A DNA stretch of 57,385 bases from Deltaproteobacteria bacterium GWF2_42_12 (GTDB taxonomy: Bacteria > Desulfobacterota > GWC2-55-46 > UBA9637), in assembly GCA_001797665.1 (NCBI GenBank), contig MGQA01000109.1:1-57385 (forward strand), in the 5' to 3' direction. Under the pieces are notes generated by a model. It saw nothing but the letters and a program-made list of their open reading frames with translations, was not told the origin of the DNA and did no database searches. The number at the start of each line of letters is the position of its first letter. The first letter of the stretch is position 1. The position numbers and the translations under genes were made by a program. Positions 5,063-36,505 of the stretch are shown here, piece by piece.

Positions 5063-6118
5063 TTAGAATTGCCCCTTCTCCACTTCTCTCACTATCGCCT
5101 CCACAATATCTTTTTCTTTTATTTTTTTCGCAGGCTTGCCTTTTATGTATAACATGCCGACTCCATCTCCGCCTGCTATGCCGATGTCTGATTCAATTGC
5201 CTCACCCGGGCCGTTTACCACGCACCCCATGACAGCTATATTTATTGGCTTTGTGATGTGCGAAAGCCTCTTTTCTATCTCATTTGCAAGGGTAATGATG
5301 TCAAGCTTGATTCTTCCGCAGGTTGGGCAGGATATGATATTGACCCCCCTCTCCCTTAATTTCATTGCCTTGAGAATCTCCCACCCTACCCTCACCTCTT
5401 CCACAGGGTCTCCTGTAAGAGAAACCCGTAAGGTATCGCCTATGCCTTCTGCCAATAAAATGCCGAGACCGACTGCTGATTTAACTGTGCCTGAAAAGAT
5501 TGTCCCTGCCTCTGTGATGCCTATGTGAAATGGATAATCAACCTTTTTAGATAGAAGCCTGTATGCGTCAATTGTTTTCCAGACATCAGATGCCTTTAAT
5601 GATACCTTAATATCATGGAAATCTAAATCTTCCAGTATCTTTATATGCCGCAATGCACTCTCTACCATTGCCTTTGGCGTTGGGTGGCCGTATTTTTCCA
5701 AAATATTCTTTTCCAGAGAGCCGGCATTCACGCCAATTCTAATGGGTATCTTCTTTTCCTGTGCAGCCTTTACTACTGTCTTGACCCTTTCTTTATCCCC
5801 TATATTGCCGGGATTCAGCCTTAGTCCATCAATTCCGTTATCTATGACCTTCAACGCTAATCGATAATCAAAATGAATATCCGCAATAAGGGGAAGATTG
5901 ATAGCCTTCTTAATCTTGCCTACTGCCTCTGCCGCCTCCATATTAGGGACAGCAACGCGCACAATTTCACACCCTGCCCTTTCCAATGCCTTTATCTGAT
6001 TCACCGTTGCCTTCACATCAGCAGTATCAGTATTGGTCATAGACTGGACAGAGATGGGGGAATTGCTTCCAATCTTTATGCTGCCAACTGAAATCTGTCT
6101 TGTTTTTCTGCGGGTCAT
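5063..6118 (-). CDS. ispG: 4-hydroxy-3-methylbut-2-en-1-yl diphosphate synthase
   Basis: [30 protein letters not shown]... plus the C-terminal CPTCGR and GCVVNGPGE Fe-S motifs. Start chosen at 6118 by similarity to the usual IspG N-terminus. The ORF extends to 6172. Confidence 0.9.
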
Positions 6119-6187
6119 GATTTTCAAGATTTTTGCAGTCATTGCAAAGCCGACAAATATCGGCTGAAGCAATCTCTTACCTGCTGC

Positions 6188-9608: not shown

Positions 9609-11201
9609 TCATCTCTTTTTTTTACCTTGCATTCCTTTTCGCTTTTCATCTTTGTAGAGTTTGTACTCAAGACTGTCCACAAGCGCCTGCCAGCTCGCCT
9701 CAATCACATTCTCAGAAACTCCGACAGTGCCCCATTTTTCCTTTCCATCCCCTGACTCTACGAGCACTCTGACAGACGCAGCCGTCCCTTTGCCTGCGGT
9801 CAACACCCTTACCTTGAAATCAAGGAGTTCAACATCTTTAAGGCTGGGATAAAATTTTTCAAGCGCCTTTCGCAGGGCGTTATCAAGGGCGTTCACAGGG
9901 CCATTTCCCTCGCTTGCTGTATGCTCAACCTTGCCATCAACTTCAAGCTTTATCGTAGCCTCAGCATATGGCGGTTCAACCTCCTTTTTCTTTTCATCAA
10001 TGACTCTGAAACCGAGGAGTTTAAAGTATTTTTTTCTGGCCTTCATGGCCTTCTGCATCAAAAGCTCGAATGACGCCTCTGCGCCTTCATACTGAAAGCC
10101 CTTATGCTCAAGCTCTTTAAGGGTCTTGAGTATACTCTGGATAATTGGGTCTTTGCTCTTTATGTCAATGCCAAACTCCTGCGCCTTATACAAGACATTT
10201 GATTTTCCAGAAAGGTCAGAAACAAGAACCCTCTGATGATTGCCAACCAAATCAGGCTTGACATGCTCATATGTATCAGGCCTTTTCAGTACCGCGCTTA
10301 CATGCACGCCGCCTTTATGCGCGAAGGCGCTGTCTCCAACATAGGCCTGATGTTTATTGTGAGGCAGGTTTGCCAACTCATAGATAAACCTGGATGTCTC
10401 TCTTAGCTTTCTTAACTGCTCAGAGCTTATGCAGTCTATTCCCATTTTTAATTTGAGATTAGGAATGATAGAACAGAGATTCGCATTTCCGCACCTCTCG
10501 CCAAAACCATTTATAGTTCCGTGCACCTGAACAGCGCCTTCTTTTACAGCAAGGACGGAGTTTGCAACAGCGGTCTCTGAATCATTATGGGCATGGATGC
10601 CCAGTGGCGCATTTACATGATGCTTTACATCCCTCATAATCTCAATTAGCTCATCAGGCAATGTCCCACCGTTTGTATCGCATAAGATAAGACACTCTGC
10701 TCCGCCTTCCTGCGCAGCCTTGAGCGTTTTTAAGGCATATTCAGGATTTGCCTTATATCCATCAAAGAAATGCTCAGCATCATAAAAGACCTCTTCTACT
10801 TTATCTTTTAGATAACTGAGCGAGTCACGGATAAGTTCAAGATTTTCATCTAAAGAGATTTTTAATGCCTCTTTTACGTGCAGATCCCATGACTTGCCAA
10901 ATATCGTTATAGCCTTAGTATTTGCCTTTAAAAGCGCCTTTATGTTGGAATCATCCTTTGCCTTTGCGCCTGCCCTTTTTGTGCTGCCAAAGGCAACGAG
11001 TCTGGCATTGTATAGCTTCACGTTCTGCATTTCTTTAAAGAACTGAATATCCCTCGGGTTTGAGCCAGGCCATCCGCCCTCAATATAATGGATGCCGAGT
11101 TCATCCAACTTCTGGGTAATCCGGATCTTATCCTCAACAGAGAAATTTATATCCTCTGCCTGAGTGCCATCTCTTAATGTTGTATCGTAGAGTTTAAACA
11201 T
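9609..11201 (-). CDS. cimA: (R)-citramalate synthase / 2-isopropylmalate synthase family
   Basis: 530 aa. [21 protein letters not shown]... is an HMGL-like TIM barrel. [13 protein letters not shown] metal site. C-terminal LeuA-type regulatory domain. Confidence 0.8.
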
Positions 11202-22555: not shown

Positions 22556-23026
22556 TCAATGCCTAAATTTATTGTGGCACATGTTGCAATTATTGATTAG
22601 TTCTGCTAATGCTGTAAGGGCATTATCCCGATTACCTGCCTTAGCTGCCTCTGATAGCTCATCTGCCTTTAAATGGACAGCCTTGCCGAGTTTCATAAAG
22701 TCCGGCTCTCTTGTCATCTTTTCAACCATTGAACAGCGCTTCTCCTCTTCCTCAGTCCAGCCTAATTTGTCTTTTGCTATCTCTGCTGCCTTATTTAAAT
22801 CATTGACTGCAAGCGCTGCCGCAATCTCGCTTAAAGTATCCATATGCTGGCGCATCATCTGCTTCTGCATAGTCTTCATAGCTTCAGGGAGTTTGAGCTC
22901 AGTCCTGTCATCTGATTTCTGCCCCTCTTGTTTCATCATCTCGTGCCTGTGGCTGTGCTCAGCAGCGCAGGAAACGCCCCCTGTCAAGAAAATTGCAGTT
23001 ACTGCCATTGCTAAAATATGTTTCAT
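22556..23026 (-). CDS. periplasmic class II (cytochrome c'-like) c-type cytochrome with a His/Met-rich N-terminal segment
   Basis: Signal peptide, predicted all-helical body and a single heme motif CNMCH four residues from the C-terminus. His/Met-rich stretch EHSHRHEMMKQ...MKTMQKQMMRQHM. Confidence 0.5.
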   Translation of the reverse strand: MKHILAMAVTAIFLTGGVSCAAEHSHRHEMMKQEGQKSDDRTELKLPEAMKTMQKQMMRQHMDTLSEIAAALAVNDLNKAAEIAKDKLGWTEEEEKRCSMVEKMTREPDFMKLGKAVHLKADELSEAAKAGNRDNALTALAELINNCNMCHNKFRH

Positions 23027-23045
23027 TCATTTCTCCTTTCTTTTT

Positions 23046-23468
23046 TTAATTCCTAAACATTGTATGGCACTGCACGCACCCGTCTAAAAGCTTATGGGTC
23101 ATATCCTGAACCTTTTTCATATCGCCTTTTCTTGAGGCAACAATAAGCGCCTCCATCTCTTTATGAAACCGTTCGTCCATCTCAATAAATTGCTTCATTT
23201 TGTCGCTGTTTTTAGGGAGTTTCAGCCCGCCTTTCTTGATTGCCTTTTCTGTATTGGCCTTTGCCTTATGCACTTCATGGAATGGCTCCTCTATAGCCTT
23301 TGGATTGTTGAGCACAAGAGCATTTATTAAGTTAATAAATGCTGCATTAAGCAGCCTCATCTCAACCTTGATTGGACTTTCATTTTCTCCTGCCTTTGCC
23401 TCCTCTGTATACCCTGCTGTTGTTTGTAATACAACAGAAACAATTACACTTAAAATAAATATTCTCAT
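23046..23468 (-). CDS. periplasmic class II (cytochrome c'-like) c-type cytochrome
   Basis: Start at MRIFILSVIV (signal peptide). C-terminal CVQCHTMFRN. Same size and layout as the downstream paralog. Confidence 0.5.
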   Translation of the reverse strand: MRIFILSVIVSVVLQTTAGYTEEAKAGENESPIKVEMRLLNAAFINLINALVLNNPKAIEEPFHEVHKAKANTEKAIKKGGLKLPKNSDKMKQFIEMDERFHKEMEALIVASRKGDMKKVQDMTHKLLDGCVQCHTMFRN

Positions 23469-23593
23469 AGCTTGTTTCCTCCAATATCTATTGATATATG
23501 TAGCCCTTACAGCGAAATGTATAATATAACGGCAAATTAATTCAAACAAAAAAATTTAAGATAGTCAATTATAATCAGACCGAATAGCAGCAG

Positions 23594-23621
23594 TTGACAA
23601 TATAAAAAATTAGGCTATAAT
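23594..23621 (+). promoter_or_regulatory. near-consensus sigma70 promoter for the SmbP-like gene
   Basis: TTGACA (23594-23599)-N16-TATAAT (23616-23621), about 57 nt upstream of the ATG. AAAGGAGG SD. Confidence 0.55.
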
Positions 23622-23677
23622 TTTGTCACCAAAAGATATCAAGGTATTCGCCTTGAAAAACCGAAAGGAGGAAAAAT

Positions 23678-23968
23678 ATGGGCAAAAGGATGGTGTTTAA
23701 TCTGATTATATCTTTTCTCGTAGCTGTAGCTTTCAGCATAGCCAATCCGGTAGCATCCATAGCCGGAGGTGAAGAACATGCAAAAGAAGGGGTAAAGCAT
23801 GTAAAGGAAGGGATAATGCATGTTAAGGAAGCTATCAAGCATCTTGAGCAATCCAGCGACCCACATGCTAAAGAGGCTGTTGAGCATGCAAAAGAGGCTA
23901 TTGAGCATGCTGAAGAGGCAATATCACATGGTGAAAGCGCCAGCGGTTCATCAAAGAAGAAGTACTAA
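23678..23968 (+). CDS. small periplasmic His-rich metal-binding protein (SmbP-like)
   Basis: 96 aa. Signal peptide followed by repeated helical H-x-K-E-(A/G) units (EEHAKEGVKHVKEGIMHVKEAIKHLE...HAKEAVEHAKEAIEHAEEAISHGE). Confidence 0.55.
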   Translation: MGKRMVFNLIISFLVAVAFSIANPVASIAGGEEHAKEGVKHVKEGIMHVKEAIKHLEQSSDPHAKEAVEHAKEAIEHAEEAISHGESASGSSKKKY

Positions 23969-23992
23969 TAGCGCTGAAAGAAAACATATCGC

Positions 23993-24144
23993 AGCAATAT
24001 GCGGCCCCACAGTAAACCCCGTTAGAGAACTTTGTTCTCTAATGATTATACAGAGTTAAGAAGTTTTCTCAACCGCCGTCCGCCTAAGGCGGAGGAGTCG
24101 GCGGCTTTCTCTAACGGGGTAAAAGAACTGCGGGGCCGCATTGT
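23993..24144. repeat. about 150-nt multi-stem inverted-repeat element between the SmbP-like gene and hpf-CSD
   Basis: Outer arms CAATATGCGGCCCCACAGT / ACTGCGGGGCCGCATTG. Inner arms AAACCCCGTTAGAGAA / TTCTCTAACGGGGT. Internal hairpins TTAGAGAAC-TTT-GTTCTCTAA and CCGCC..CCGCCTAAGGCGG..GGCGG. Confidence 0.55.
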
Positions 24145-24148
24145 TTTA

Positions 24149-24177
24149 TTGACAAGAATGAAGAAAATAAAGATAAT
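24149..24177 (+). promoter_or_regulatory. candidate sigma70 promoter for hpf-CSD
   Basis: TTGACA (24149-24154)-N17-GATAAT (24172-24177), 50 nt upstream of the ATG at 24228. AAGGAG SD. Confidence 0.45.
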
Positions 24178-24227
24178 AGAAATGCCTGCGATAATTGAAT
24201 TTTACTCTTAATAAAAGGAGATTACCT

Positions 24228-24764
24228 ATGAAACTTGAACTGCAAATCGCTTCTCACAATTTTGAACTCACGGAGCCGCTGCGTGAACTCATACGCGAAA
24301 AGGCAGAAAAACTGGACAGTTTTTACGAGCATATCATGCGATGCAGGGTTGTGGTGGAAGTTCCCCATCGCCACAAGCATAAGGGCATCCTCTATAACAT
24401 AAATATTTATATAACAGTGGCAGGCGGAGAGGTTGTGGTAAAACGCGAACCAAATGAAGATATATACGTAGCCATAAGGGACGCCTTTGACACAGCGCGC
24501 CGCAAACTTGAAGATTATGCCAGAAAACAGCGGGGTGATATAAAATCTCATGAGGAAATACCGCATGCGAGGGTAAGCGCATTATTCCCAGACAAGGGAT
24601 ATGGCTTCTTAACAACCGGTGACGGCAGGGATATATATTTTCACGAAAACAGCGTGCTGAATAGCGAATTTAAACAGCTTAAACTCGGCTCTGTAGTACA
24701 TTTTGCAGAAGAACAGGGAGAAAAAGGGCCTCAGGCAAGCACAGTAAGGGTAATAGTAAAATAG
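24228..24764 (+). CDS. HPF/RaiA (S30AE) ribosome-associated domain fused to a cold-shock domain
   Basis: N-terminus: MKLELQIASHNFELTEPLRELIREKAEKL...YVAIRDAFDTARRKLEDY (S30AE pattern). C-terminus: ARVSALFPDKGYGFLTTGDGRDIYFHENSV...GSVVHFAEEQGEKGPQASTV (CSD RNP1-like KGYGFL and FHxxxV). Confidence 0.8.
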   Translation: MKLELQIASHNFELTEPLRELIREKAEKLDSFYEHIMRCRVVVEVPHRHKHKGILYNINIYITVAGGEVVVKREPNEDIYVAIRDAFDTARRKLEDYARKQRGDIKSHEEIPHARVSALFPDKGYGFLTTGDGRDIYFHENSVLNSEFKQLKLGSVVHFAEEQGEKGPQASTVRVIVK

Positions 24765-24885
24765 TTCATGCTGAAAAATTCATCATGAACTTGATTACAC
24801 AGATTACAATCAGATTACGCCGATTAAAGATTTAGTTGTCAACCATTCTTCAGTGGCAACTAAATAGGTCTTTTCTTTTATAAAA

Positions 24886-25848
24886 CTAAAGCGGAAAATG
24901 GCAGGCAGCCAACCGATTATCTCTCCTTGGCTCTAATAGAGGCACTTCTATCCTGCATCTCTCCTGTGCATAAATGCACCTTGTATGAAATACACATCCT
25001 GACGGCGGGTTTATCGGGCTTGGTATTTCGCCTTTCAGTATAATCCTTTTCTTCTTTGTTTTGGGGTCAGGCATGGGAACTGCTGACAAGAGCGCCTCTG
25101 TATAAGGATGCACAGGATGGCGGTAAATTTCTTTGGATGTTGCTATTTCCATAATCTTTCCCAGATACATGACCGCAACCCTGTCGCTTATATATTCCAC
25201 AACACGCAGGTCATGGGCAATAAAAAGATAGGTCAGGTCAAACTCCTTTTGAAGTTCTCTAAAAAGGTTTATAATCTGCGCCTGGATGGAAACATCCAAA
25301 GCTGATATGGGTTCGTCTGCAATAATAAATTTTGGATTCAAAGCCAAAGCCCTGGCAATGCCGATTCTCTGTCTCTGTCCTCCGCTGAATTCATGGGGAT
25401 AGAGCGAGATGGAATTCTTTGGAAGGCCGACAATATCAACAAGTTTTTTTACCCTTTCCGCTTTTTCTGCGCCACTTGCTACCTTATGTATGCTTAATGC
25501 CTCTCCTATAATCTCTCCAACAGGCATCCTCGGATTGAGGGACGCATAAGGGTCCTGAAAGATTATCTGCAACTCCCTTCTTACCGATTTAAGCCCTTTT
25601 GATTTTAGATGGGTTATATCCCTGCCATCAAAGATTATATTGCCTGCTGTCGGCTCCATCAGCCTTGCAACAATCCGTCCCAACGTGGACTTTCCACAGC
25701 CGCTCTCACCAACAAGGCCGAATATCTCTCCTTTCTCTACAGAAAAACTCACCCCCTCAACTGCATGGACAATGCCGGCGCTTTTCTTAAACATGCCGCC
25801 ACAGGCTGGAAAGTGTTTTGTGATGTTATTTAATGTGAGAAGTTGCAT
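24886..25848 (-). CDS. oppF: oligopeptide/dipeptide ABC transporter ATP-binding protein
   Basis: Walker [10 protein letters not shown], signature FSGGQRQRIGIARAL, Walker B FIIADEPISALD and the C-terminal oligopeptide-type extension ..PSGCVFHTRC. Confidence 0.85.
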   Translation of the reverse strand: MQLLTLNNITKHFPACGGMFKKSAGIVHAVEGVSFSVEKGEIFGLVGESGCGKSTLGRIVARLMEPTAGNIIFDGRDITHLKSKGLKSVRRELQIIFQDPYASLNPRMPVGEIIGEALSIHKVASGAEKAERVKKLVDIVGLPKNSISLYPHEFSGGQRQRIGIARALALNPKFIIADEPISALDVSIQAQIINLFRELQKEFDLTYLFIAHDLRVVEYISDRVAVMYLGKIMEIATSKEIYRHPVHPYTEALLSAVPMPDPKTKKKRIILKGEIPSPINPPSGCVFHTRCIYAQERCRIEVPLLEPRRDNRLAACHFPL

Positions 25849-25871
25849 AAAGTTTTGAGAACAAGAAAAAC

Positions 25872-26061
25872 TCCACCCCCTGCACCCCCGCCAGCGGGGG
25901 ACAAGACTGTGTCCCTCTCTGGAGGGTGCTATTTGTTTATCCCCATCTGGAGGGGGTAGGGGGAGGATTGTCCTCCAACTGTAAATATCCCTTCTCTGTC
26001 CCCCACTGATGGGTAGCTATTCCTTCTCTGTCCCACTCTGGCGGGGGATCAAGGGGGTGGA
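25872..26061. repeat. about 190-bp element with about 38-bp terminal inverted repeats in the oppD-oppF spacer (MITE-like)
   Basis: Left end TCCACCCCCTGCACCCCCGCCAGCGGGGGACA. The reverse complement of the right end is TCCACCCCCTTGATCCCCCGCCAGAGTGGGACA. An extra internal copy of the right arm lies at about 25989-26012. Confidence 0.55.
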
Positions 26062-26233
26062 CTGTTCCATGTGTTTTTTGATATTTTTTCCATCTTTCGT
26101 TTTCCTGTCATAATGTTCCCTGGTAGATTGCATTCAATTGATTAGACATAACATTCTTTTATATCTCCATACATCTTTTAGCGAATTTCAGGTCAATTTG
26201 TGCGGAGATTCACCACAAATTAGATAGGGCAAA

Positions 26234-27268
26234 CTACGCTTTATAACAAGCTACTAAATGCCCTTTTTTAATTTCTACCAACTCCGGCTCATGTTCTGTG
26301 CAGCCAAAATCTGCCTTTGGGCATCGGTCATAGAAAGTGCATCCGGCTGGAAGATTCAGAAGCCCCGGCACTGTTCCCGGGATTGTTTTCAAAAGACCCC
26401 TGCCTCCCATTTCCCCTTGTTTTGTAGGGGAGGGGCTTGTCCCCTCCAAAGGGGAGACCACAAGGGTCTCCCCTACGCTCTCCATTGTGGGCAGAGAGTT
26501 GAGAAGCCCGATAGTGTATGGGTGCATCGGTTCTGCAAATAAAGTTTTTGTATCCGTATACTCCACAATCTTGCCCGCATACATCACTGCAACATCATCT
26601 ACTGTCTCTGCAACAACGCCGAGGTCGTGGGTTATGAGAATCATAGCCATATCAAGCTGCTTTTGCAAACCTTGTATCAATTCCAGAATCTGCGCCTGAA
26701 TCGTGACATCAAGGGCTGTTGTAGGCTCGTCTGCTATCAAAATACTGGGATTGCACGAAAGCGCCATGGCAATCATGGCCCTCTGCCTCATGCCGCCGCT
26801 CATCTGGTGCGGATAGTCTTTTATCCTTTTTTCAGGCGAAGGGATGCCCACCAATCTCAGGGCATCTATGGTCTTTTCCATGACTTCATTTTTATGCAGA
26901 CTCTGGTGCAGGGTAATGGCTTCGGAAATCTGGTTGCCGATAGTCAGCACAGGATTGAGTGATGTCATGGGCTCCTGAAAAACCATTGCAATCTCAGCGC
27001 CCCGTATCTTCCGCATCTCATCTTCAGAAAGCTTTAGCAGGTCTTTCTCTTTATAAAAAACCTCCCCACGCACAATTCTTCCGGGAAAAGATACAAGTCT
27101 CATAAGGGAGAGCGCTGTAACGCTCTTTCCGCACCCGCTCTCTCCTACAAGACCGAGGGTCTGGCCTTTCTCAAGGCTAAAGCTCACCCCGCGCACAGCC
27201 TTTACCTCGCCTGCATCGGTAAAGAATGATGTGTGGAGGTCGGTTATTTTAAGTAAGGGGGTTGGCAT
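26234..27268 (-). CDS. oppD: oligopeptide/dipeptide ABC transporter ATP-binding protein
   Basis: Walker [10 protein letters not shown], signature [15 protein letters not shown], Walker [13 protein letters not shown] and C-terminal ..[11 protein letters not shown]. Carries a repeat-derived insertion. Confidence 0.85.
26395..26475. repeat. double-hairpin insertion inside oppD
   Basis: GGGGAGGGGCTTGTCCCCTCC (26427-26447) followed by GGGGAGACCACAAGGGTCTCCCC (26451-26473). The first hairpin recurs at 20521-20541 inside nnr. Translated as ..[24 protein letters not shown].. Confidence 0.65.
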
Positions 27269-27274
27269 AGTGTT

Positions 27275-30200
27275 TTACTGGTGAAATTCAATAATCTCTT
27301 TTTCAATACCAGGATATACGTTGTCTATCTGAGCCTGAATCTCTATTGTTTTCTTCAGGACAGCAACTATCCCGCAGTAATGTTTTATATCATCAAGAGA
27401 CAGCACCCTGTCTTTCCTATCCTTGAGCCATTTATCCAGAACCTGATAACCGCCGATCCGGTATTCCCAGACCTCCGGCAGTATGCCTTCAAAATACTGT
27501 TCCTTGTTTATAAAGAGATTGCCTTTTTCGTATTTCAGCTTCTCAACTTTATCATTCCCCTTGCCCTGGAATTTTGCAACCGGAGTATCAATCTCCGATG
27601 TCTTTAAAAGATGCAACTCAATAAGCCTTTCCCCATAGCCAGCCATCTTCTTAAAGAGTTTATAATCCTTTGTAAAGGGAATCCTTGGAAAATCTATCTT
27701 TAAGAACTCTGCGTATTTTGTGCGGTAGGTGTTTGAATAAAGGATAGCATAGATATAATAGAAGATTTGCTCTGGGGTAATGTATTGTTTGTCATTCCCG
27801 TGAAAACGGGAATCCATATCCTTTTCTCTGGATTCCTGCTTCCGCAGGAATGACGAATCATGAATAAATGATTTTTTATACTCTTTCGTCAATTTCTCCA
27901 CCAATGCAGGAGAGAGATTTGGCTTCTTTGCCGTATATTCTGCCTGCGGCTCAAAGAGCATCATGGTGCTGCCAAAAGAGCGTTTTTTAGGTTTGTCTTT
28001 TTGCTGGTAAAGGTAGAGGGGGAAAATGTAGCCTGTTTCCCTGGTCTTGAGTGAAACGAAACACATATCTGCAACCTTCTTGGTTACAAAAGCGTGTAAA
28101 AAGTCCATAGTGGATAATTGCCTTGTTACACAAATTCCAAGGTTGTCCTCAAAAAAGTTTTTCATCAAACCCCATCGGTCACATCCTCTGTCAATTAAAT
28201 CTTGGATATAGCAAATCTGCCTATCATCAAAGGGGCGATAAGAGTAAGGTCTTATGTATTCTTTCCAGTCTATTTTCTTTAGGCTCTCTCTTGCAGTTTT
28301 TAATTTCCAATCTCTTGTGTCTTTTAAGTTTAAACTCTGGGCAGCAAGTTCATCAGGCAGATTGCTGACAAAAGTTCGCATTTTTTGTTTGACCTCCTCT
28401 TCTGTGAAGCCTACTAAAAAATGGTCACGATGAGTTTTCACCCCGCTTGAAGACTGAATGAATATGCCTTGAATGGGAATAAATTTTTTATATTTTGCTT
28501 GTTCTGAAAAATCCTTTTTAACAAAGAAATAATAAGGCTCGGTCGGTTGCAACTTAAACCATTTTGTTGAATCAGTAGCATACTTATTTAGATATTCATG
28601 TTTCTTTTCCCGAATGCCATAGACATCCTGATAGAAAACTTTGCCATGACCTTTCTGTTTTTTATCTTTAACAAAGATAGCAATCGAAACCCCTTGCTGA
28701 ATATCAAAGACATTTTCATCCTTGCTTCCATCAGAACATCTTTCGCCAATGCGACTGTTTCCATGAATGTTGAGAATATAAATCTCATTAAAACTTTCCA
28801 ACAAGCGCTTACGCATGCCTCGGTGAATTAATCCTGAAAGATAGGAGTTGTTAGTAATCATCCCGATAATACCTGTGCCGGCATTATCTATTTTCCAGTG
28901 CGCAAATCGGATGAATTTAATGTAATCATCAGACAAAGGCTGGATGTTTCTTTCGTCACGAACATCTTCTTTATATACGTCCATTTCTTTTTCTATAAAC
29001 TTTGATTTATTTGCAGAACTAACTGAATACGGCGGGTTGCCGAGGATGACCAAAATAGGCTGCTCCTTTTTGATTTTGCCTGCAAGATGGGATTCTTCTG
29101 AAAGAGATGCCATGCCGGGAAGTTCAGTCTGCGAGAGCTCTTCCATCTCAAGGGTATTGGTGAGATAGAGTTTGAACCTGTCATCCCCCTGCAATCCGTA
29201 ACCCAACTCTTCAAGAAGAAAAGACATCTTTAAATGACCAATAGCATAAGGCGCCATCATAAGTTCAAAGGCGTAGAAGTTTTTAAGGATATGCTCTTTA
29301 ATAAAACCTGTCTTCTTTCCTTCTCCGTATTTTGATGTCCACTCCTCCATTGCCAGCTTCGCAGCCTCTGCCAAAAATGTGAGCGTCCCCGCAGCAGGGT
29401 CTAACACAGTAACTGACTGATTTGCGAAGCCGTCCTTTTTATTGAAATACTCTTTTAAGATATGATGAAGGGAGCGAACGATGTATGAGACCACAGGCTC
29501 CGGCGTGTAATATACGCCTCTCTTTTCCCGTGTCTTTGGGTCGTATTCAGCAAGAAATGTCTCATAAAAATGGACAATGGGGTCTTTGCCTTTATGTTTG
29601 TTAAAATACTCATCAAGTATCTTATAAACATTTGTTGTAGCCAGAACATCTGATATGTCATCAATAATCCATTCCATCTGCCGGGGCAAATCGCCCAACG
29701 AGATGAATCTGAATACATCTCTTAATATGCCTATTGTCCGGGGAATCTTATCGTATGCGAGTTTTCTGTTAAAACCGTTTTCTGTGCGGGTTCTGGCAGC
29801 AAAGAGACCGTAGGCGATAGTTTGCGAATAAAGGTCTGCAAAGTCCTCCTTTGTCAGCCCGCTTATAAGGTGCTCTTTAAACGCCTTATAAAAACCGAGA
29901 ATGTTCCCTTTCCCCTTTTTTTCTTCTTCTTCCAACTCCTGTGCAATCACCTCATCCTTTAAAAAGCGAGTCCTCTTTGCAAGCTCTATTGCTAATGCTT
30001 TGGCATCATAGACCTTTGGCAAAGAAAAAGAGAGGAATTTTTCCAATAGATTACAAAAATCCTTTTCTTTCTCAACCGGCGGGACGGTCTTGAGTTTGTG
30101 AATGACATACGGCCGCGCAATCTGGGCTTTATCAATTAACTGGCCATTGCGGTAAAGTCTGAATTCAAAAAAATTAGTTAATATGAGGTTGGGAAAGGTA

Positions 30201-30523
30201 TGAAGGTAACGTTTTAACTGCTCGGTTTCTTCTATCTGGTCCAAATATTCAACCCCCCGATATCCCCCCTTATCAAGGGGGGAAGTAAAGGGGGGTGTCT
30301 TTGCCTCAATATATCCTACTATCTGCTGTTTTCCATCCCATATTCTGAAATCAGGGTTGCCGGCATCGGTTTTTTTAGGCAGGGTTGTAATGTCTACATT
30401 TTCCCTGTTTATTGAGTCAGCATAATTTGTTAAAAGCTCCTCAAGGCACGAATAGTAGCTCTCTTCCCTTGCATCGCCTCTATTTGCAATATCAGATATG
30501 CGTTTAAGATATGATTTCAGCAT
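27275..30523 (-). CDS. fused endonuclease / N6-adenine DNA methyltransferase / target-recognition enzyme (type IIG, MmeI- or type ISP-like), paralog 2, embedded in the opp operon
   Basis: 1082 aa. N-terminal NPDF..x..GYIEAK (PD-ExK-like). Motif I VLDPAAGTLTF. Motif IV ILGNPPY. C-terminal IFYYIYAILYSNTYRTKYAEFLKIDFPRIPF. Collinear with the 1174-4251 protein block by block but strongly diverged. Confidence 0.8.
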   Translation of the reverse strand: MLKSYLKRISDIANRGDAREESYYSCLEELLTNYADSINRENVDITTLPKKTDAGNPDFRIWDGKQQIVGYIEAKTPPFTSPLDKGGYRGVEYLDQIEETEQLKRYLHTFPNLILTNFFEFRLYRNGQLIDKAQIARPYVIHKLKTVPPVEKEKDFCNLLEKFLSFSLPKVYDAKALAIELAKRTRFLKDEVIAQELEEEEKKGKGNILGFYKAFKEHLISGLTKEDFADLYSQTIAYGLFAARTRTENGFNRKLAYDKIPRTIGILRDVFRFISLGDLPRQMEWIIDDISDVLATTNVYKILDEYFNKHKGKDPIVHFYETFLAEYDPKTREKRGVYYTPEPVVSYIVRSLHHILKEYFNKKDGFANQSVTVLDPAAGTLTFLAEAAKLAMEEWTSKYGEGKKTGFIKEHILKNFYAFELMMAPYAIGHLKMSFLLEELGYGLQGDDRFKLYLTNTLEMEELSQTELPGMASLSEESHLAGKIKKEQPILVILGNPPYSVSSANKSKFIEKEMDVYKEDVRDERNIQPLSDDYIKFIRFAHWKIDNAGTGIIGMITNNSYLSGLIHRGMRKRLLESFNEIYILNIHGNSRIGERCSDGSKDENVFDIQQGVSIAIFVKDKKQKGHGKVFYQDVYGIREKKHEYLNKYATDSTKWFKLQPTEPYYFFVKKDFSEQAKYKKFIPIQGIFIQSSSGVKTHRDHFLVGFTEEEVKQKMRTFVSNLPDELAAQSLNLKDTRDWKLKTARESLKKIDWKEYIRPYSYRPFDDRQICYIQDLIDRGCDRWGLMKNFFEDNLGICVTRQLSTMDFLHAFVTKKVADMCFVSLKTRETGYIFPLYLYQQKDKPKKRSFGSTMMLFEPQAEYTAKKPNLSPALVEKLTKEYKKSFIHDSSFLRKQESREKDMDSRFHGNDKQYITPEQIFYYIYAILYSNTYRTKYAEFLKIDFPRIPFTKDYKLFKKMAGYGERLIELHLLKTSEIDTPVAKFQGKGNDKVEKLKYEKGNLFINKEQYFEGILPEVWEYRIGGYQVLDKWLKDRKDRVLSLDDIKHYCGIVAVLKKTIEIQAQIDNVYPGIEKEIIEFHQ
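27791..27854. repeat. GTCATT...AATGAC palindromic element, copy 3, in-frame inside RM paralog 2
   Basis: GTCATTCCCGTGAAAACGGGAATCC-atatccttttctct-GGATTCCTGCTTCCGCAGGAATGAC, two hairpins. Translated as SSFLRKQESREKDMDSRFHGNDK. Confidence 0.7.
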
Positions 30524-30526
30524 GAA

Positions 30527-31375
30527 TTATATCTTCAACCTCGGGTCTATAGAATCCCGTATCCCCTCGCCTAAAAGATTATATGCCAGCACTGTTACAA
30601 ATATGGCAAGACCGGGAAATACTGAAATCCACCAGGCAATCTCAATATTGTCTTTTCCAATGGTTAAGATATTCCCCCAGCTTGCAGTTGGTGGCTGGAC
30701 GCCAATGCCAAGAAAGCTCAATGCTGATTCAATAAGCACTGCGCCTGCAATTCCCAACACCGCTGACACAAGCACAGGGGACATGGCATTGGGCAGGATA
30801 TGTCTGAAGATTATCCTAAAGTCGCTCGCACCCAATGCCCTTGCTGCAAGGACAAACTCCCTTTCTTTCAAAGACAAAAACTCTGCCCTCACAAGCCTCG
30901 CAACACCCATCCATGATGTTACGCCTATGACAATCATTATATTCCATATGCTCGGTTCAAGGAATGCAATGACTGCAAGGATTAAGAAGAAGGTTGGAAT
31001 TGCAAGCATGATGTCAACAAAACGCATACTTATCCTGTCAACCCAACCGCCATAATAGCCTGACAATGCGCCAAAGATTATGCCGATGATTGTGGCAATG
31101 CCGACGGCAACAAACCCAACTTGCAGAGAAATCCATGACCCATGTATGACACGGCTTAAGATGTCTCTCCCAAGATCGTCCGTCCCGAATGGGTGCTTTG
31201 AACTTGGCGGCTCAAGCACATGCTTGACATCTATCGCACTCGGGTCATACGGCGCAATCAAGGGTGCCAAGACAGCAATAGCAAAAAGCAAAAACACAAT
31301 AATCCCGCCGATAACCGCAAGCCGGTTCTTTTTAAATCTATGCCAGAAGAGAGTTTTTAAAGTTGGTTGACCCAT
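30527..31375 (-). CDS. oppC: oligopeptide ABC transporter permease
   Basis: Six TM segments, BPD-transporter EAA-like region (..EFVLAARALGASDFRIIFRHILPN..). Start set at MGQPTLKTLFWHRF. The longer ORF reads into the upstream repeat. Confidence 0.85.
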   Translation of the reverse strand: MGQPTLKTLFWHRFKKNRLAVIGGIIVFLLFAIAVLAPLIAPYDPSAIDVKHVLEPPSSKHPFGTDDLGRDILSRVIHGSWISLQVGFVAVGIATIIGIIFGALSGYYGGWVDRISMRFVDIMLAIPTFFLILAVIAFLEPSIWNIMIVIGVTSWMGVARLVRAEFLSLKEREFVLAARALGASDFRIIFRHILPNAMSPVLVSAVLGIAGAVLIESALSFLGIGVQPPTASWGNILTIGKDNIEIAWWISVFPGLAIFVTVLAYNLLGEGIRDSIDPRLKI

Positions 31376-31389
31376 ATAATTAAATAAAC

Positions 31390-31545
31390 GGGAGAGTGGG
31401 GGAAACGGGGAAACGGAGAATATGAAAAACACGAATCGGGGAATCGGAGAATGGGGGAATGGGAGAAAGATTTTTCCCCGTTTCTCCGTTTCTCCCGCTC
31501 TCCGATTCTATCCTTTGTCTCCCATTCGCCGATTCTCCGATTCGT
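31390..31545. repeat. palindromic array of octamer repeats in the oppB-oppC spacer
   Basis: G-rich arm GGGGAAAC GGGGAAAC ... GAATCGGG GAATCGGA GAATGGGG GAATGGGA. C-rich arm CCCCGTTTC TCCGTTTC ... GCCGATTC TCCGATTC. Confidence 0.6.
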
Positions 31546-31552
31546 ATTTCCT

Positions 31553-32527
31553 TTATCTTGCCCTAATCCTCGGATCCGCCAGCGCATACCCAATATCTGC
31601 CAGTAAATTGCCAAGCAAGGTCAATATTGCGCCGATGGTCAATATGCCCATTATCACAGGATAATCCCTCATCATCACAGACTGAAAAAAGAGCTGACCC
31701 ATGCCTGGGATGCTGAAAATATTCTCAAAGATTACACTCCCGCCGATCAACCCCGGAATAGACAAGCCAAGTATTGTTATCACTGGAAGCAGGGCGTTTC
31801 TCAAGGCATGTTTATATATAACCTTCTTTTCAGGAAGCCCTTTTGCCCTTGCAGTTGTTATATAATCCTGCCGTATCACCTCCAGCATATTGCTCCTCAT
31901 GTATCTTGAAAGCCCTGCAAGCCCGCCAAATGCCTCAATGGTAACAGGAAGAATCAGATGGCTGACATTGTCCCAAATCTTATTAAGTGTTGAAAAGTTC
32001 TCATAACCAAGGGATTTTAGCCCTGATATAGGAAGCCAGTGCAGGTTGACGCCAAAGAGTATCATTAAAAGCAGCGCAAGCCAGAATGTTGGAATGGCAA
32101 AGCCAATAAAAACAATAACGGTAGTAATCTTATCGTAGAGAGAATACGGTCTGACAGCAGAAGACACCCCTATCGGAATAGCAATCATAAATATTAAAAT
32201 AAGGGCAAGGCTGTTAATGAGGATAGTAATTGGAAGTCTTTCTTTAACTTTTGTCCATACCGGCCTTCTATCCGTTGAGAAAGAATCTCCAAAATCAAGC
32301 TTTACAACCCTTTTAAGCCACATCCAGTACTGCTCATGAATGGGCTTGTCAAGACCATAGTATTTCTCAAGCCTCTCCCTTGCCTCAGGCGTCATCTTTG
32401 GATTAAGGTCTGCTAAAATATCTGTTGGCTTGCCCGGTGCAAGGTGGATGATTAAGAAAGAGATAATGGTAATCCCGATAAGCGTCGGAATCATCTCAAG
32501 GAGTCTTTTAAATAGGTAGATTAGCAT
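31553..32527 (-). CDS. oppB: oligopeptide ABC transporter permease
   Basis: [25 protein letters not shown]-terminus is typical of OppB/DppB. Six TM segments. ..[28 protein letters not shown].. EAA loop. Confidence 0.85.
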
Positions 32528-32537
32528 ATGCAAACAA

Positions 32538-32653
32538 TGTCAAATGTCAAAGCTCAAAATTCAAATGAAATTTAAAGCTTAAAGTTCAAATTAATTTACA
32601 TTTGGTTTTTAGTTTTGACATTCATTTGATATTTGGATTTTGACATTTGGATT
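32538..32653. repeat. palindromic array of AT-rich heptamers in the oppA-oppB spacer
   Basis: GTCAAAT GTCAAAG CTCAAAA TTCAAAT ... faces CATTTGA TATTTGG ATTTTGA CATTTGG. Confidence 0.55.
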
Positions 32654-34380
32654 TATTTTGTCATTTTATGCCTTTGCTGTTCTTTTGGCACATACCACTT
32701 GTTAACGTTATAACCCATGCCTATAAGCGGCGCCGGGTCTATGCCCTTAAATCGCGCATGGACAATAGGCGTTGCATCAGGCACATAGAGAAATATGTAC
32801 GGAACTTCGTCTGCGAGTATCTCCTGAATTCTAAAATATGCCTTTTTCCTTTCTTCTATATTATATGTCCTTCTCCCCTTTTCTAAAAGTTCATCCACCT
32901 CCGGATTATTATAGCTTACAAAGTTAAATTCCTTTTCTTTCATCTTGCTGCTGTGCCATATATCATACTGGTCCGGATCAAGTCCGAGGCTCCATCCAAG
33001 AATGATTGCCTCAAACCTTCGCTTATCAATAAATTCATTTATAAATGTAGACCACTCGAGTGTCCGCACCTTTACATTTATTCCAATCATTCTAAGCTGC
33101 CACTGGATAATCGTTGCTACATTTATACGCACCGTGTTCCCCTGATTTGTAAGGATGGTAAACTCAAACGGCCTTCCGTCTTTATCCAGAATACCATCTC
33201 GGTCTGTATCTCTCCACCCTGCCTCAGCAAGAAGCTCCTTTGCCTTTTCTGGATTATATTCATATTTTTTTACATTCTGATTATATGCCCATGTATTCGG
33301 CACATAGGAGCCTGTGGCTGGTGACCCAAGGCCGAACAAGACGCCATCAACTATCTCTTGCTTGTTTATCGCATACGCCATAGCCTGCCTCACCTTCTTA
33401 TCGCTAAACCAAGGATGTTTTTCTAAACACCTTGCCGAGGCTTTATCCCATCGCAGACAAAGATTAAATCCCATATATGTATAGACAGGCGCAGGATATC
33501 GGTATTTTCTAAAGTTTTTTTCAAAATAAGGGTTATTCGTCTGTTTTGTATACTGGATTGGCGTAAGCCCCATCCAGTCTATGCCGCCTGACTTAAGCTC
33601 AAGAAACATTGTCGCAGGATCAGGTATTACACGGTATACATATTTATCTATATATGGTCTGCCCTCAAAATAGCCCGGATTTGTCTCAAGCACAACTTCC
33701 TGTCCAGGTGTCCATTTTACAAATTTGAACGGGCCCATGCCTATTGGGTATCTCCCCAGCTCACTCTTTGTTATATCTTTTCCTTCAAGGAGGTGCTTTG
33801 GGAGGACAGTGAGGTTTCCCCAACTGCTGAGCGCCGGGGCAAACGGCTGTTTATATGTAACCCTGAATGTATATTTATCTAAGGCCTCTGCCATTTTGAC
33901 CTGCCTGTAATCCTCTGAATATGCTGTTGGAGTTTTCTCATCTACGATAGTCTTGTAGCCAAACATCACATCTTCAGCAGTAAATTCAACTCCATCAGTC
34001 CATTTGACGCCTTTTCGCAGATGAAATGTAATTATAAGGCCGTCTTTGGATATATCCCACGACTGCGCCAAATCGCCAATAATGCTTAAATCTTTATCGT
34101 ATTTGACAAGGCCATTAAAGACGAGGCTTGCTACATTGTGGGATGCAGCGTCGCCTGCAAGCATGGGAATGAGAATGCTTGGCTCGCCGATTGTGCCTTC
34201 AACAAGGGTGTCGCCGTAAGCAGGGCCTGTGTCGTAATTTATAACCTGTTCTGCGTCTGCCTCTTTGTCTATTTTTGTGCAACCGCCGGTAAAAATCAGA
34301 AGTAGGGTAAGAAATGGTATTGTATATTTGAGATTTGAGTCCGCCTTAGGCGGATGGGATTTGAGACTGCTCAGGCGCAT
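32653..34380 (-). CDS. oppA: ABC transporter substrate-binding lipoprotein, family 5 (oligopeptide-binding)
   Basis: 575 aa. Lipobox LLIFTGGC. SBP_bac_5 layout (..FHLRKGVKWTDGVEFTAEDV.., ..GWSLGLDPD..). Confidence 0.85.
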   Translation of the reverse strand: MRLSSLKSHPPKADSNLKYTIPFLTLLLIFTGGCTKIDKEADAEQVINYDTGPAYGDTLVEGTIGEPSILIPMLAGDAASHNVASLVFNGLVKYDKDLSIIGDLAQSWDISKDGLIITFHLRKGVKWTDGVEFTAEDVMFGYKTIVDEKTPTAYSEDYRQVKMAEALDKYTFRVTYKQPFAPALSSWGNLTVLPKHLLEGKDITKSELGRYPIGMGPFKFVKWTPGQEVVLETNPGYFEGRPYIDKYVYRVIPDPATMFLELKSGGIDWMGLTPIQYTKQTNNPYFEKNFRKYRYPAPVYTYMGFNLCLRWDKASARCLEKHPWFSDKKVRQAMAYAINKQEIVDGVLFGLGSPATGSYVPNTWAYNQNVKKYEYNPEKAKELLAEAGWRDTDRDGILDKDGRPFEFTILTNQGNTVRINVATIIQWQLRMIGINVKVRTLEWSTFINEFIDKRRFEAIILGWSLGLDPDQYDIWHSSKMKEKEFNFVSYNNPEVDELLEKGRRTYNIEERKKAYFRIQEILADEVPYIFLYVPDATPIVHARFKGIDPAPLIGMGYNVNKWYVPKEQQRHKMTK

Positions 34381-34550
34381 GATGGCCTAAAATAACTCAA
34401 TTATGTTATTTTTGCAAGATGATTGAAGTCCAGTAAAATAGAGATTAAAAACCTCGCTATTTTACAAACCTGCGATTTGCCCGCCATACTTCGTTATCGG
34501 CGCATCCCTGATAAAAGCACTCAGGGACATGTTTTTGCTCCTCGCCGTAT

Positions 34551-34681
34551 CCTCCCCCTGTCCCCCTGTGAAAAGGGGGATAAAGGGGGAGGGCTCGTCG
34601 CAAAAATAGCCTCTGTCCCCGATTGAATCTATCGGGGACAACTTGCAGGTTTCCCCAAAAATCAAACGCTATTTTTTGGGG
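34551..34681. repeat. cluster of three hairpin repeats upstream of oppA
   Basis: CCTCCCCCTGTCCCCCTGTGAAAAGGGGGATAAAGGGGGAGG (34551-34592). GTCCCCGAT-tgaatct-ATCGGGGAC (34615-34638). CCCCAAAAATCAAACGCTATTTTTTGGGG (34653-34681, third member of the 6662/20829 family). Confidence 0.6.
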
Positions 34682-34691
34682 TCTGGAAAAT

Positions 34692-34728
34692 AAAAAACCC
34701 TGTGTGTTTAAACACACAGGGTTTTTTT
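34692..34728 (-). terminator. rho-independent terminator downstream of rpoZ (structurally bidirectional)
   Basis: AAAAAACCCTGTGTGTTT|AAACACACAGGGTTTTTTT. A perfect 13-bp stem flanked by A and T runs. Confidence 0.8.
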
Positions 34729-34746
34729 GGTAACACTTGTCTATTT

Positions 34747-34971
34747 TCAGTCATTCGATTTATGTCTTTTTTTGACAATCGCCTTTGACTCCTCATAGGT
34801 AATCTTGCCTGCTGCTATCTCTCTTAATGCTGTCACAATAGCCCTGTTATCCGAATCTACAAATGGTTTTGCGCCCTTTAGTAATTCCTTAGCCCTTTGT
34901 GATGAGAGTACCACAAGCGAAAACCTGTTCGGCACCCTTGCAAGGCAATCTTCAACTGTTATTCTTGCCAT
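34747..34971 (-). CDS. rpoZ: DNA-directed RNA polymerase subunit omega
   Basis: [30 protein letters not shown] is the canonical RpoZ N-terminus. Confidence 0.85.
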
Positions 34972-35010
34972 TTAAATACCTCCTTAATAAATACATTTTT
35001 TGTCCATTTA

Positions 35011-35640
35011 TTAACAAATAACATCAAACAACTTCTTAACCTTTTTTAACATCCTTTCTTTCTTGCTTCTTTCTGCAATAATAATGGACTTAAGTCTTTC
35101 AAATGCGTAATCAAGATTATCATTTATAATAAAATAATCATATTTTTTTGCTTGTTTTATTTCCTTTTTTGCTGTTTCCAACCTGTCGAGAATGACTTCA
35201 TTGCTGTCTTTACCTCTGTTCCTAATCCTTTCTTTGGTCGTCTCTAATGAGGGAGGAAAAATAAATATAAATACTGCTGACATGCCCTTTTTCTTAACCT
35301 GCGCTGCACCCTGAACATCAATATCCAGAATTATATCTAATCCCTTCTCAAGAATGGCTTGAGTATCCTTAACAGATGTTCCGTATTTATTACCATGAAC
35401 ACGGGCCCATTCCAGGAATTCACTGTTATCAAGCATTTTCTGGAATATCAGCTCACTTACAAAGTGATAGTCAACACCGTTTTTCTCGCCTTCCCTGGGA
35501 GACCTTGTTGTGTATGATATAGAGTGCCTTAAATCAGGAAAATAGTCAACTGCCTTTCTGCAAAGCGTTGTCTTACCAGCCCCAGAGGGGGCGGAAACTA
35601 TGAAAAGAATGCCACCGCTTCTGACTTCTTTTTTACTCAA
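35011..35640 (-). CDS. gmk: guanylate kinase
   Basis: P-loop SAPSGAGKTTL, ..SYTTRSPREGEKNGVDYHF.. Start placed at TTG 35640, overlapping the yicC stop. The ORF track extends to an ATG at 35691 inside yicC. Confidence 0.85.
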   Translation of the reverse strand: MSKKEVRSGGILFIVSAPSGAGKTTLCRKAVDYFPDLRHSISYTTRSPREGEKNGVDYHFVSELIFQKMLDNSEFLEWARVHGNKYGTSVKDTQAILEKGLDIILDIDVQGAAQVKKKGMSAVFIFIFPPSLETTKERIRNRGKDSNEVILDRLETAKKEIKQAKKYDYFIINDNLDYAFERLKSIIIAERSKKERMLKKVKKLFDVIC

Positions 35641-36505
35641 TGTTTTGCACCTGCTCCCTAATCTTCTCCAACTCCGCCTTTGCCGACACAACGAAACTGC
35701 TCAACTCAAAATCGTTTGACTTTGAACCAATGGTATTTATCTCTCTTAAAATCTCCTGACACAAAAAATCCATCTTCCTGCCAACAGGCTCGTTTAACTT
35801 AAGCATACTCTTAAACTGGGTCAAATGACTGTTTAGTCTCACCAGCTCTTCAGTTATGTTACTCCTCTCTGCAAAGATGGCTGCCTCTGTCAAAACCCTT
35901 GCTTCGTCTATGCTTACACCGCCCAAAATACCTGTTAATCTTTCTCTCAGTTTCTCTCTATATGTTTCAGCAACCATCGGCGCCCTCCCGGTCATCTTTA
36001 CAACGATATCCTCCATGTCTTTTAATCTTGAAGCTATATCCCTTGATAACGCTTCACCCTCTTCTTCTCTCATCTTAGCAAGGGAATTCAGCGCAACATT
36101 CAGTCCCTGTTTTATCCCTTGCCAGTCGTTTTCTAAATCATGCGCTGCCGCTCCAGACGAAAATACATCTTTGAATCTTAATAATAGTGATATATCTATC
36201 TCGCCTCTAAGGTCAAGCTCTTTTTGAAGCTCCTGAAGAACCCCTAAATAATGTTTTGCTAAAGGGATATTTGGCCTTAATTCTATCCCAGCTTCTCTCT
36301 CGGCAGTAATTGATATATATAAGCACCCCCTGGAAAAAAAGTTCTTTATCTCATCCCTAATCTTATTTTCCAACAAGAAAAATCTGTCCGCAGCCCTGAC
36401 ATTTATCTCAATAAAGCGATGATTAACACTCTTTATTTCAAGGGTGAACTTATCCTCACCAATCAAGAAATCACACACCCCATATCCTGTCATACTTTTA
36501 ATCAC
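35633..36505 (-). CDS. yicC: YicC/YloC family stress-induced endoribonuclease
   Basis: MIKSMTGYG...IKSVNHRF N-terminus and C-terminal ..EILREINTIGSKSND.. The yicC-gmk-rpoZ order is a widely conserved arrangement. Confidence 0.85.
   Translation of the reverse strand: MIKSMTGYGVCDFLIGEDKFTLEIKSVNHRFIEINVRAADRFFLLENKIRDEIKNFFSRGCLYISITAEREAGIELRPNIPLAKHYLGVLQELQKELDLRGEIDISLLLRFKDVFSSGAAAHDLENDWQGIKQGLNVALNSLAKMREEEGEALSRDIASRLKDMEDIVVKMTGRAPMVAETYREKLRERLTGILGGVSIDEARVLTEAAIFAERSNITEELVRLNSHLTQFKSMLKLNEPVGRKMDFLCQEILREINTIGSKSNDFELSSFVVSAKAELEKIREQVQNIE

Follow-up and report, generated by a model that had tools for sequence, protein, structure and literature searches.

A DrdV-like restriction-modification gene at a variable junction inside an opp operon

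How does a gene for a DNA-cleaving enzyme come to lie between two cistrons of a peptide importer operon, and is it still a restriction gene there? The question is raised by a contig of 57,385 nucleotides (nt) from Deltaproteobacteria bacterium GWF2_42_12 (MGQA01000109.1, assembly GCA_001797665.1), which is called the window here over its whole length. On its minus strand, an open reading frame (ORF) of 1082 amino acids (aa) of the restriction-modification (RM) type stands between oppC and oppD of an Opp/Dpp-type operon. A preliminary description of the window reported this layout with spacers of 3 and 6 nt, and the ORF list and the sequence confirm it. The analysis described here indicates that the ORF probably encodes a functional Type IIL/IIG enzyme of the DrdV kind and that it resides in a long-lived defence hotspot inside the operon, at the place where oppC and oppD overlap in an empty allele.

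The oppC-oppD junction and its occupants

The RM gene is an intact ORF located at 27275-30523 of the minus strand. Its ATG (30521-30523) is separated from the oppC stop (TAA, 30527-30529) by the spacer TTC (30524-30526), and its own stop (TAA, 27275-27277) is separated from the oppD ATG (27266-27268) by the spacer AACACT (27269-27274). Searches with OppD and OppC identified orthologous operons in about a dozen related contigs. Comparison of their synteny, as the preliminary description had proposed, revealed presence/absence variation at this junction, with at least four occupied states and one empty state. The junction is empty in L007, where the oppC TGA overlaps the oppD ATG (ATGA). The ORF-family gene stands alone in the window and L085, in L167/L168 and in L173, and it is accompanied by further genes in L006 (a SEC-C/Xre_MbcA gene), L166 (DUF3800) and L169-171 (an AAA ATPase, RadC-N and a ParE pair). 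In L005 and L175 the junction holds RadC-N, with or without ParE, and an unrelated enzyme of the Eco57I/MmeI type, and in L086 and L172 it holds RadC-N, an NmeDI-like methylase and RtcA, to which L086 adds an AAA ATPase. The ORF family thus occupies the orthologous site in five or more further lineages (L006, L166, L167/L168, L173 and L169-171), and all cargo genes called at these loci point along the opp strand. The gene had initially been regarded as an oddity wedged into an otherwise fixed operon; instead, the oppC-oppD junction is a variable defence hotspot in this clade. The possibility raised earlier that relatives routinely carry this family at this site holds within the one clade and does not hold across phyla. 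L169 and L172 have OppD proteins that are 98% identical and carry different cargo, so the exchange of cargo is recent. The empty locus nests among the occupied ones by OppD identity.

The junctions themselves are homologous across diverged lineages. The left junction, which reads ATATAA, TTC and ATGCTGAAATC, is found again in L173 and, with the spacer CTT, in L167. The right junction, CACCAGTAA followed by AACACT and ATGCC, has the same spacer in L173 and the spacer AACTCT in L169, and it can be made out in L167, in which an earlier stop has arisen by a G-to-T change. Alignments continue unbroken across both junctions, and the occupied alleles therefore appear to descend from a single old insertion. 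The empty allele of L007 reads CCCGAGGTTGAAGATATGACC, and the window junctions read GAAGATAT followed by AATTCATG on the left and TAAAACACT followed by ATGCC on the right. Neither a target duplication beyond AT, nor terminal repeats at the ORF ends, nor a nearby recombinase was found, and on these grounds a de novo insertion mediated by a transposon or integrase was rejected. An integron-like array of promoterless cassettes was also rejected, since the annotated neighbours at all loci include no integrase or recombinase (attC sites were not searched systematically) and the intergenic pieces common to the islands are gene leaders. One Transposase_mut gene lies ~2 kb past oppF in L173.

The ORF family is not tied to opp. 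Its close homologs in the Nitrospirota-type contigs L001-L004 sit among unrelated housekeeping genes, which rules out an intrinsic link to the transporter. In three of these contigs the DrdV-like gene is followed, with an overlap or a 7-nt gap, by an ORF of 276-288 aa without a Pfam match (L001 11073-11939; L002 11128-11958; L003 5442-6272). This ORF could be a partner gene of the DrdV-like gene, and the window lacks it.

A small stand-alone UPF0758_N (RadC N-terminal) gene recurs in the cargo, with the conserved start M-E/Q-QSNP-R/K-WTHPGGKL (L005 4187-4522; L153 3789-end; L086 5921-6217; L169 2848-3153; L172 422-718; L175 247-555). It is the first cargo gene or follows an AAA ATPase, and it is often succeeded by a pair consisting of a 62-aa ORF and ParE. 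After this set comes a large methyltransferase whose family varies between DrdV-like, Eco57I-like and NmeDI-like.

The flanking genes of the window form a standard Opp/Dpp-type ATP-binding cassette (ABC) importer, as judged by Pfam and NCBIfam. The ORF list and direct reading of the junctions give the minus-strand order oppA, oppB, oppC, the 1082-aa ORF, oppD and oppF. The first gene encodes an oppA-type substrate-binding protein (32653-34380; SBP_bac_5, 1e-103; Opp4A-like in NCBIfam), which is followed by an oppB-type permease (31553-32533; BPD_transp_1 and BPD_transp_1_N) and the left anchor gene, an oppC-type permease (30527-31432; OppC_N and BPD_transp_1). The right anchor gene, an oppD-type ATPase (26234-27268), and the last gene of the operon, an oppF-type ATPase (24886-25848), both match ABC_tran and oligo_HPY and are named OppD/DppD and DppF/OppF, respectively, by NCBIfam. 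The earlier premise that Opp operons are normally contiguous fails in the wider family. Metagenome relatives with 70-80% OppC identity (L087-L165) mostly have no oppDF within 9 kb after oppABC, which is followed instead by unrelated genes such as GlnE, flavin oxidoreductases, TatD, FtsK and Fic; in L093, L116 and L117 the ATPase genes lie downstream and are convergent. By these arrangements, the permeases and ATPases of this transporter family are loosely linked in evolution.

A second variable site lies one gene downstream. The oppD-oppF gap of the window (25849-26233, minus strand) is 385 nt long, and blastn against the related loci and inverted repeats account for its parts. In L169-172 the counterpart of the first ~88 nt (26146-26231) is the leader that precedes the TIR_2 gene, and that of the next ~83 nt (26061-26143) is the beginning of the Type III mod gene, ~17 codons long, together with the sequence upstream of it. 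A palindromic element makes up the remainder, its arms lying near 25861-25903 and 26029-26072; copies of the arm sequences flank a DUF559 (Vsr-like) endonuclease gene at both ends in L006, and one more lies inside that gene. By these matches the gap is recognised as the deletion scar of a larger TIR/Type III defence island, which bears out the earlier suggestion that the locus is being remodelled. The same position is occupied in L169-172 by an island of 8 kb that includes TIR_2, Type III Mod/Res, PIN and CopG, in L006 by the DUF559 gene, and in L167 (10075-14231) and L173 (9966-14532) by an RND efflux pump (membrane-fusion protein and ACR_tran) that is co-oriented with the operon. Judged by its contents, the oppD-oppF junction is a second hotspot, and the RND pump implies that it accepts non-defence cargo too.

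The enzyme and the mosaic history of its gene

The preliminary description identified the product as a fused nuclease-methyltransferase of the RM type, and the Pfam, PADLOC and PDB matches agree with this. The Pfam matches are Type_ISP_C (5.2e-89, aa 687-1062), N6_Mtase (2e-11) and Eco57I (9e-7), the last two being above the cut-offs. PADLOC reports REase_MTase_IIG at 1.9e-240 and a second Type IIG model, PDLC03631, that spans aa 11-726. The PDB profile matches are LlaBIII (5e-64), DrdV (8e-60) and LlaGI (5e-55).

The N-terminal ~150 residues (30074-30523, minus strand) are assigned to a PD-(D/E)xK nuclease domain on the basis of phmmer, invariant residues and PDLC03631. The phmmer alignment places aa 2-77 on DrdV residues 6-83 with the PD...ExK motif included, and the N-terminal match taken alone is weak (domain E-value 1.4). 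E20, D58, E73 and K75 are invariant in 36 homologs, the window copy included, and the motif reads P57-D58...E73-A74-K75. The active-site residues given for DrdV in the paper on that enzyme, D64, E79 and E25, align with D58, E73 and E20. A gamma-class N6-adenine methyltransferase follows at aa 313-640 (28604-29587), where N6_Mtase and Eco57I match; its motif I is LDPAAGTLTF and its motif IV is NPPY (496-499). The residues D375-P-A-A-G-T-L-T-F and N496-P497-P498-Y499 are invariant in the same 36-homolog alignment. The C-terminal part, aa 687-1062 (27338-28465), is the Type_ISP_C target-recognition domain and was aligned to the recognition domains of LlaBIII and DrdV.

No helicase, ResIII, AAA or ATPase match was found in the ORF by Pfam or PADLOC, ISP_coupler (PF22240) was not reported by Pfam at E ≤ 0.001, and only aa 1-310 precede the methyltransferase. 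A Type ISP enzyme was ruled out because the RecA-like motor is missing, ISP_coupler is undetected and the PDB matches start past the motor domains. A BREX PglX methyltransferase was ruled out by the weak PglX match in PADLOC (1.8e-4, covering the methyltransferase core alone) and by the neighbours, which are opp genes. As predicted from these features, the ORF is a DrdV-like single-chain enzyme that consists of a nuclease, a helical connector, an N6-adenine methyltransferase and a recognition domain.

The window contains a second RM gene at 1174-4251 of the minus strand, which encodes 1025 aa and is 26% identical to the ORF. This paralog is far closer to the DrdV-type model (PADLOC PDLC03621, 4.9e-279) than the ORF is, and it carries an ISP_coupler domain (2.6e-16). 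No NCBIfam model matches either protein. The preliminary description placed the paralog in a variable island, which is not shown by the comparison; the gene adjoins ispG/gcpE (5063-6172).

The ORF family is very large, with more than 8000 matches in a protein search, and the best 120 of these are 64-84% identical to the ORF and are labelled Nitrospirota, Planctomycetota and Deltaproteobacteria. Compositional anomaly was considered and set aside, since the G+C values (37-42% for the ORF, 41.4% for the window and 43-49% for the opp genes) are not diagnostic.

Identity to L167 and L173 changes along the locus. It is 70-84% at the nucleotide level in oppB and early oppC, and 82-93% in the last ~500 nt of oppC, where it climbs toward the junction. 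In the gene up to ~aa 470 it is mostly 85-98%, and L166 and L169 are similar there (83-98%). L173 matches the ORF at 90-98% up to ~aa 330, and patches of lower identity lie near aa 231-280 in L167 (79-80%) and at aa 331-470 in L173 (62-74%). The C-terminal end of the gene is mostly 75-95% identical and oppD is 72-90% identical. Taken as a whole, aa 1-475 are 80-98% identical to L167, L166 and L169, as against mostly 71-84% for oppB, oppD and the first half of oppC. A central segment, aa 476-825 (28049-29098, minus strand), comprises the C-terminal part of the methyltransferase, with the NPPY region, and the recognition core, and is only 41-71% identical at the nucleotide level and 22-70% at the protein level to L167, L173, L166 and L169; it reaches 94% nucleotide identity to the Nitrospirota-context allele L002. 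In L006 a similar divergence is confined to the recognition core. On these identities the window gene is a mosaic, in which residues 1-475 and 826-1082 resemble the locus alleles and residues 476-825 are foreign to the locus. Swaps of specificity segments are ordinary in Type I, IIG and ISP enzymes. The central replacement looks like such a swap, and a changed target sequence is its likely outcome.

The synonymous divergence (dS) of the N-terminal half of the gene is 0.24-0.62, as against 0.87-1.36 for the opp genes. The corresponding ratios of nonsynonymous to synonymous divergence (dN/dS) are 0.05-0.11, the nuclease included, and 0.05-0.10. By this measure purifying selection acts on the N-terminal half as strongly as on the transporter genes. 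The N-terminal half and the C-terminal end of the gene are much more similar between lineages than most of the opp flanks are, and identity climbs within oppC, which is read as transfer through flanking recombination; we infer that the gene moved between relatives after their lineages had diverged, by homologous recombination tracts that end in the opp flanks.

Two palindromes interrupt the coding sequence in frame. The first is G/C-rich (30252-30296, minus strand; hairpin -31 kcal/mol) and adds 12 aa (PFTSPLDKGGYRG) two residues past K75. It is missing from the locus alleles L167 and L169, in which only 458/470 codons align and the sequence around the site is ~90% identical, and P0003 has a similar 'PPLxxGxxxG' insert in that place. 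The second is a nested palindrome (27791-27854, minus strand; hairpin -38.6 kcal/mol, z -7.3) that adds ~30 aa (SFLRKQESREKDMDSRFHGNDK) inside the recognition domain. The same element occupies the same position in L001/P0003 and in P0008, and its presence in L001 indicates that it travels with the gene. Related inserts occur at other positions in further homologs. The window contains no further copy of either palindrome, which rules out a local repeat family as their source.

Expression, function and competing explanations

The preliminary description stated that the two spacers leave no room for expression signals, and no promoter-like or terminator-like site was found at either junction. Over the region the scan returned counts at chance (29 promoter-like matches as compared with 23.7 ± 5.1 expected), and its result is weak negative evidence. 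Rfam reported no family at gathering score across 23000-36000. A GAGG within oppC precedes the oppD ATG by 8 nt in the empty L007 and the ORF ATG by 15 nt in the window. The oppD gene of the window is preceded by CACCAGTAAAACACT, which contains no Shine-Dalgarno-like match and has a duplex energy of +0.7 kcal/mol. Co-transcription and translational coupling are plausible on this evidence. The window gene seems to bring with it neither a promoter nor a terminator nor a usable Shine-Dalgarno; the opp promoter probably drives its transcription, and its translation probably starts by weak termination-reinitiation after oppC. The ancestral Shine-Dalgarno of oppD would have been lost to the insert, and the translation of oppD would be coupled to termination of the restriction gene. 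This model of read-through and coupling fits the uniform co-orientation of the cargo.

Alternatively, the 3' end of oppC could contain a promoter that drives the gene outside peptide-uptake regulation, and the tight spacing would then reflect only compaction. The last ~500 nt of oppC appear to have been co-transferred with the gene and could hold such a promoter, a 9/12 promoter-like match lies within oppC at 31104-31077, and a TATAAT is present inside GATATAATTC shortly before the ATG. However, promoter-like matches occur in the region at the chance level given above, the TATAAT ends 2 nt before the ATG so that its transcript would begin within the ORF, and in L166 and L169 other cargo precedes the gene and the sequence upstream of it differs. 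An own promoter is therefore considered unlikely, and transcription from the opp promoter is preferred for the window gene.

A promoter of a different kind is seen in L086, the contig with a 7.5-kb island, where a near-consensus sigma-70 promoter (TTGACT-16-TATAAT, about 10000-10037) stands directly upstream of oppD. It appears from this that oppDF can gain a separate promoter where a large insert is present.

If it works as DrdV does, the enzyme would modify host DNA at an asymmetric site, methylating a single strand, and would cut incoming DNA that carries several unmodified sites. The preliminary description left room for domestication of the protein, that is, for an orphan or regulatory methyltransferase or another role linked to peptide uptake, with DNA restriction lost. 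This explanation could draw on the long residence of the gene within a housekeeping operon under strong purifying selection, on the 12-aa insert beside the catalytic lysine of the window copy, and on the annotation of several large cargo genes, found at this site in relatives, as methylases only. It is opposed by the invariance of the four nuclease residues in all 36 homologs, the window copy among them, and by the low dN/dS of the half that contains the nuclease. Alleles have exchanged the recognition core, as active restriction enzymes typically do, and this fits diversifying specificity rather than a fixed regulatory motif. Additionally, the neighbouring cargo of relatives is classic defence (TIR, Type III Res/Mod, PIN, ParE and AAA ATPases), and the transporter does not need the gene, as the site is empty in L007. 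The claim of domestication thus found no support, and it is a rather improbable account of this protein.

A chimera, in which the assembly joined the restriction gene of another organism onto opp fragments, is refuted for practical purposes: the window is metagenome-like, and the closest full-length relatives of the protein (80-84% identity) are labelled Nitrospirota while those of OppD are labelled Deltaproteobacteria, but the similarity to Nitrospirota is limited to aa 476-825 and the remaining gene matches opp alleles of the same locus, homologs of the left junction are seen in L167 and L173 and of the right in L169, with alignments unbroken across both, and a separately assembled 32.9-kb ENA contig (L085) has the same oppC-ORF-oppD order and an identical protein, so that the arrangement is not a private misassembly.

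The favoured interpretation, a functional DrdV-like enzyme in an old defence hotspot, has several points to its disadvantage. AlphaFold2, run on the full protein with the 36-sequence alignment, produced a model with a mean predicted local distance difference test score (pLDDT) of 52, a predicted template modelling score (pTM) of 0.35 and values mostly <50 in the nuclease region, which is too poor for structural confirmation of the nuclease fold. The 12-aa insert next to K75, being missing in the closest locus alleles, might impair cleavage in the window copy. The lower dS of the gene may stem in part from composition or codon constraints rather than from recent transfer. Larger islands in relatives probably hold internal promoters, so read-through is not necessarily the rule of the hotspot. 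Finally, expression, coupling and restriction activity are all inferred.

A broader proposal is that the opp operon of this clade serves as an expression platform for defence genes, in which promoterless, co-oriented cassettes are caught at two cistron junctions, traded by homologous recombination and expressed by read-through, with the translation of oppD and oppF dependent on the cargo. This proposal is speculative and is doubtful as a whole. If it were true, restriction and other immunity would track peptide availability. Since the insert would have taken over the ribosome-binding site of oppD, the translation of oppD and oppF would require ribosomes to read the restriction gene to its stop, and imprecise loss of the cargo or a nonsense mutation in it would be costly; this would amount to an operon-level addiction that is distinct from post-segregational killing.

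The locus is a well-resolved natural case of a restriction enzyme that persists in a housekeeping operon, with a swap of its specificity segment and a probable flank-mediated exchange of cassettes between relatives. If read-through and coupling are true, it would provide a simple test system for low, host-linked levels of a self-toxic enzyme and for whether operon architecture stabilises selfish or defence genes. It is also a caution for annotators that in these groundwater lineages the cistron junctions of conserved operons can be defence hotspots.

Relation to known systems

Among characterised enzymes, the Type IIL single-chain enzyme DrdV (PDB 7lo5/7lvv) has the same order of parts as the ORF and a similar size (1029 as compared with 1082 aa). 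It likewise lacks an ATPase, the similarity takes in the methyltransferase and the recognition domain as well as the nuclease motif, and the catalytic D/E/E residues correspond. The differences are that sequence identity is only distant and that the ORF has two palindrome-derived in-frame inserts. MmeI and BpuSI bear a looser likeness to the ORF. LlaGI and LlaBIII, both of Type ISP, provide the best PDB sequence matches to its methyltransferase and recognition domains, and Type_ISP_C is common to both groups. Their defining RecA-like translocase is missing from the ORF, whose matches begin at ~LlaBIII 839 and ~LlaGI 675, past the motors, and ISP_coupler is detected in the paralog at 1174-4251 and undetected in the ORF. 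The collision-based cleavage mechanism therefore cannot apply to the ORF.

The locus itself resembles the immigration control region of E. coli (yjiA-yjiN; Sibley & Raleigh 2004, reviewed in PMC12707154), in which restriction genes vary in a cassette-like manner between conserved anchors and an empty allele exists, and the pneumococcal DpnI/DpnII/DpnIII cassettes, which follow the same anchor-and-cassette pattern (PMC12707154). The likeness lies in the conserved anchors, the empty allele, the alternative restriction or defence cargo at one site and a pattern that would fit homologous recombination between the flanks as the means of exchange. Unlike in those systems, the opp anchors, both cistrons of one operon, overlap in the empty allele, the cargo is all co-oriented with the operon and in its minimal state brings no expression signals, and the oppD-oppF junction, one gene downstream, is a second hotspot.

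Insertion of RM systems into operon-like gene clusters has been described by Furuta, Abe & Kobayashi 2010 (PMC2853133) and Ishikawa et al. 2010 (PMC2993543). Their cases are alike in that an RM unit stands between operon-like genes and spans translation start and stop sites with the target genes undisrupted. They are single insertions, the one quoted having long target duplications, whereas the opp site has only the trivial AT duplication and is multi-allelic across genus-level divergence. A search of the open-access literature found no report of restriction or defence cargo inside opp operons. The locus is a well-documented instance of known phenomena and not a new kind of system, and the enzyme joins the DrdV-like Type IIL/IIG group. 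What is less usual here is the combination of anchors that are overlapping cistrons, a site that is multi-allelic across genus-level divergence and a second hotspot one gene away.

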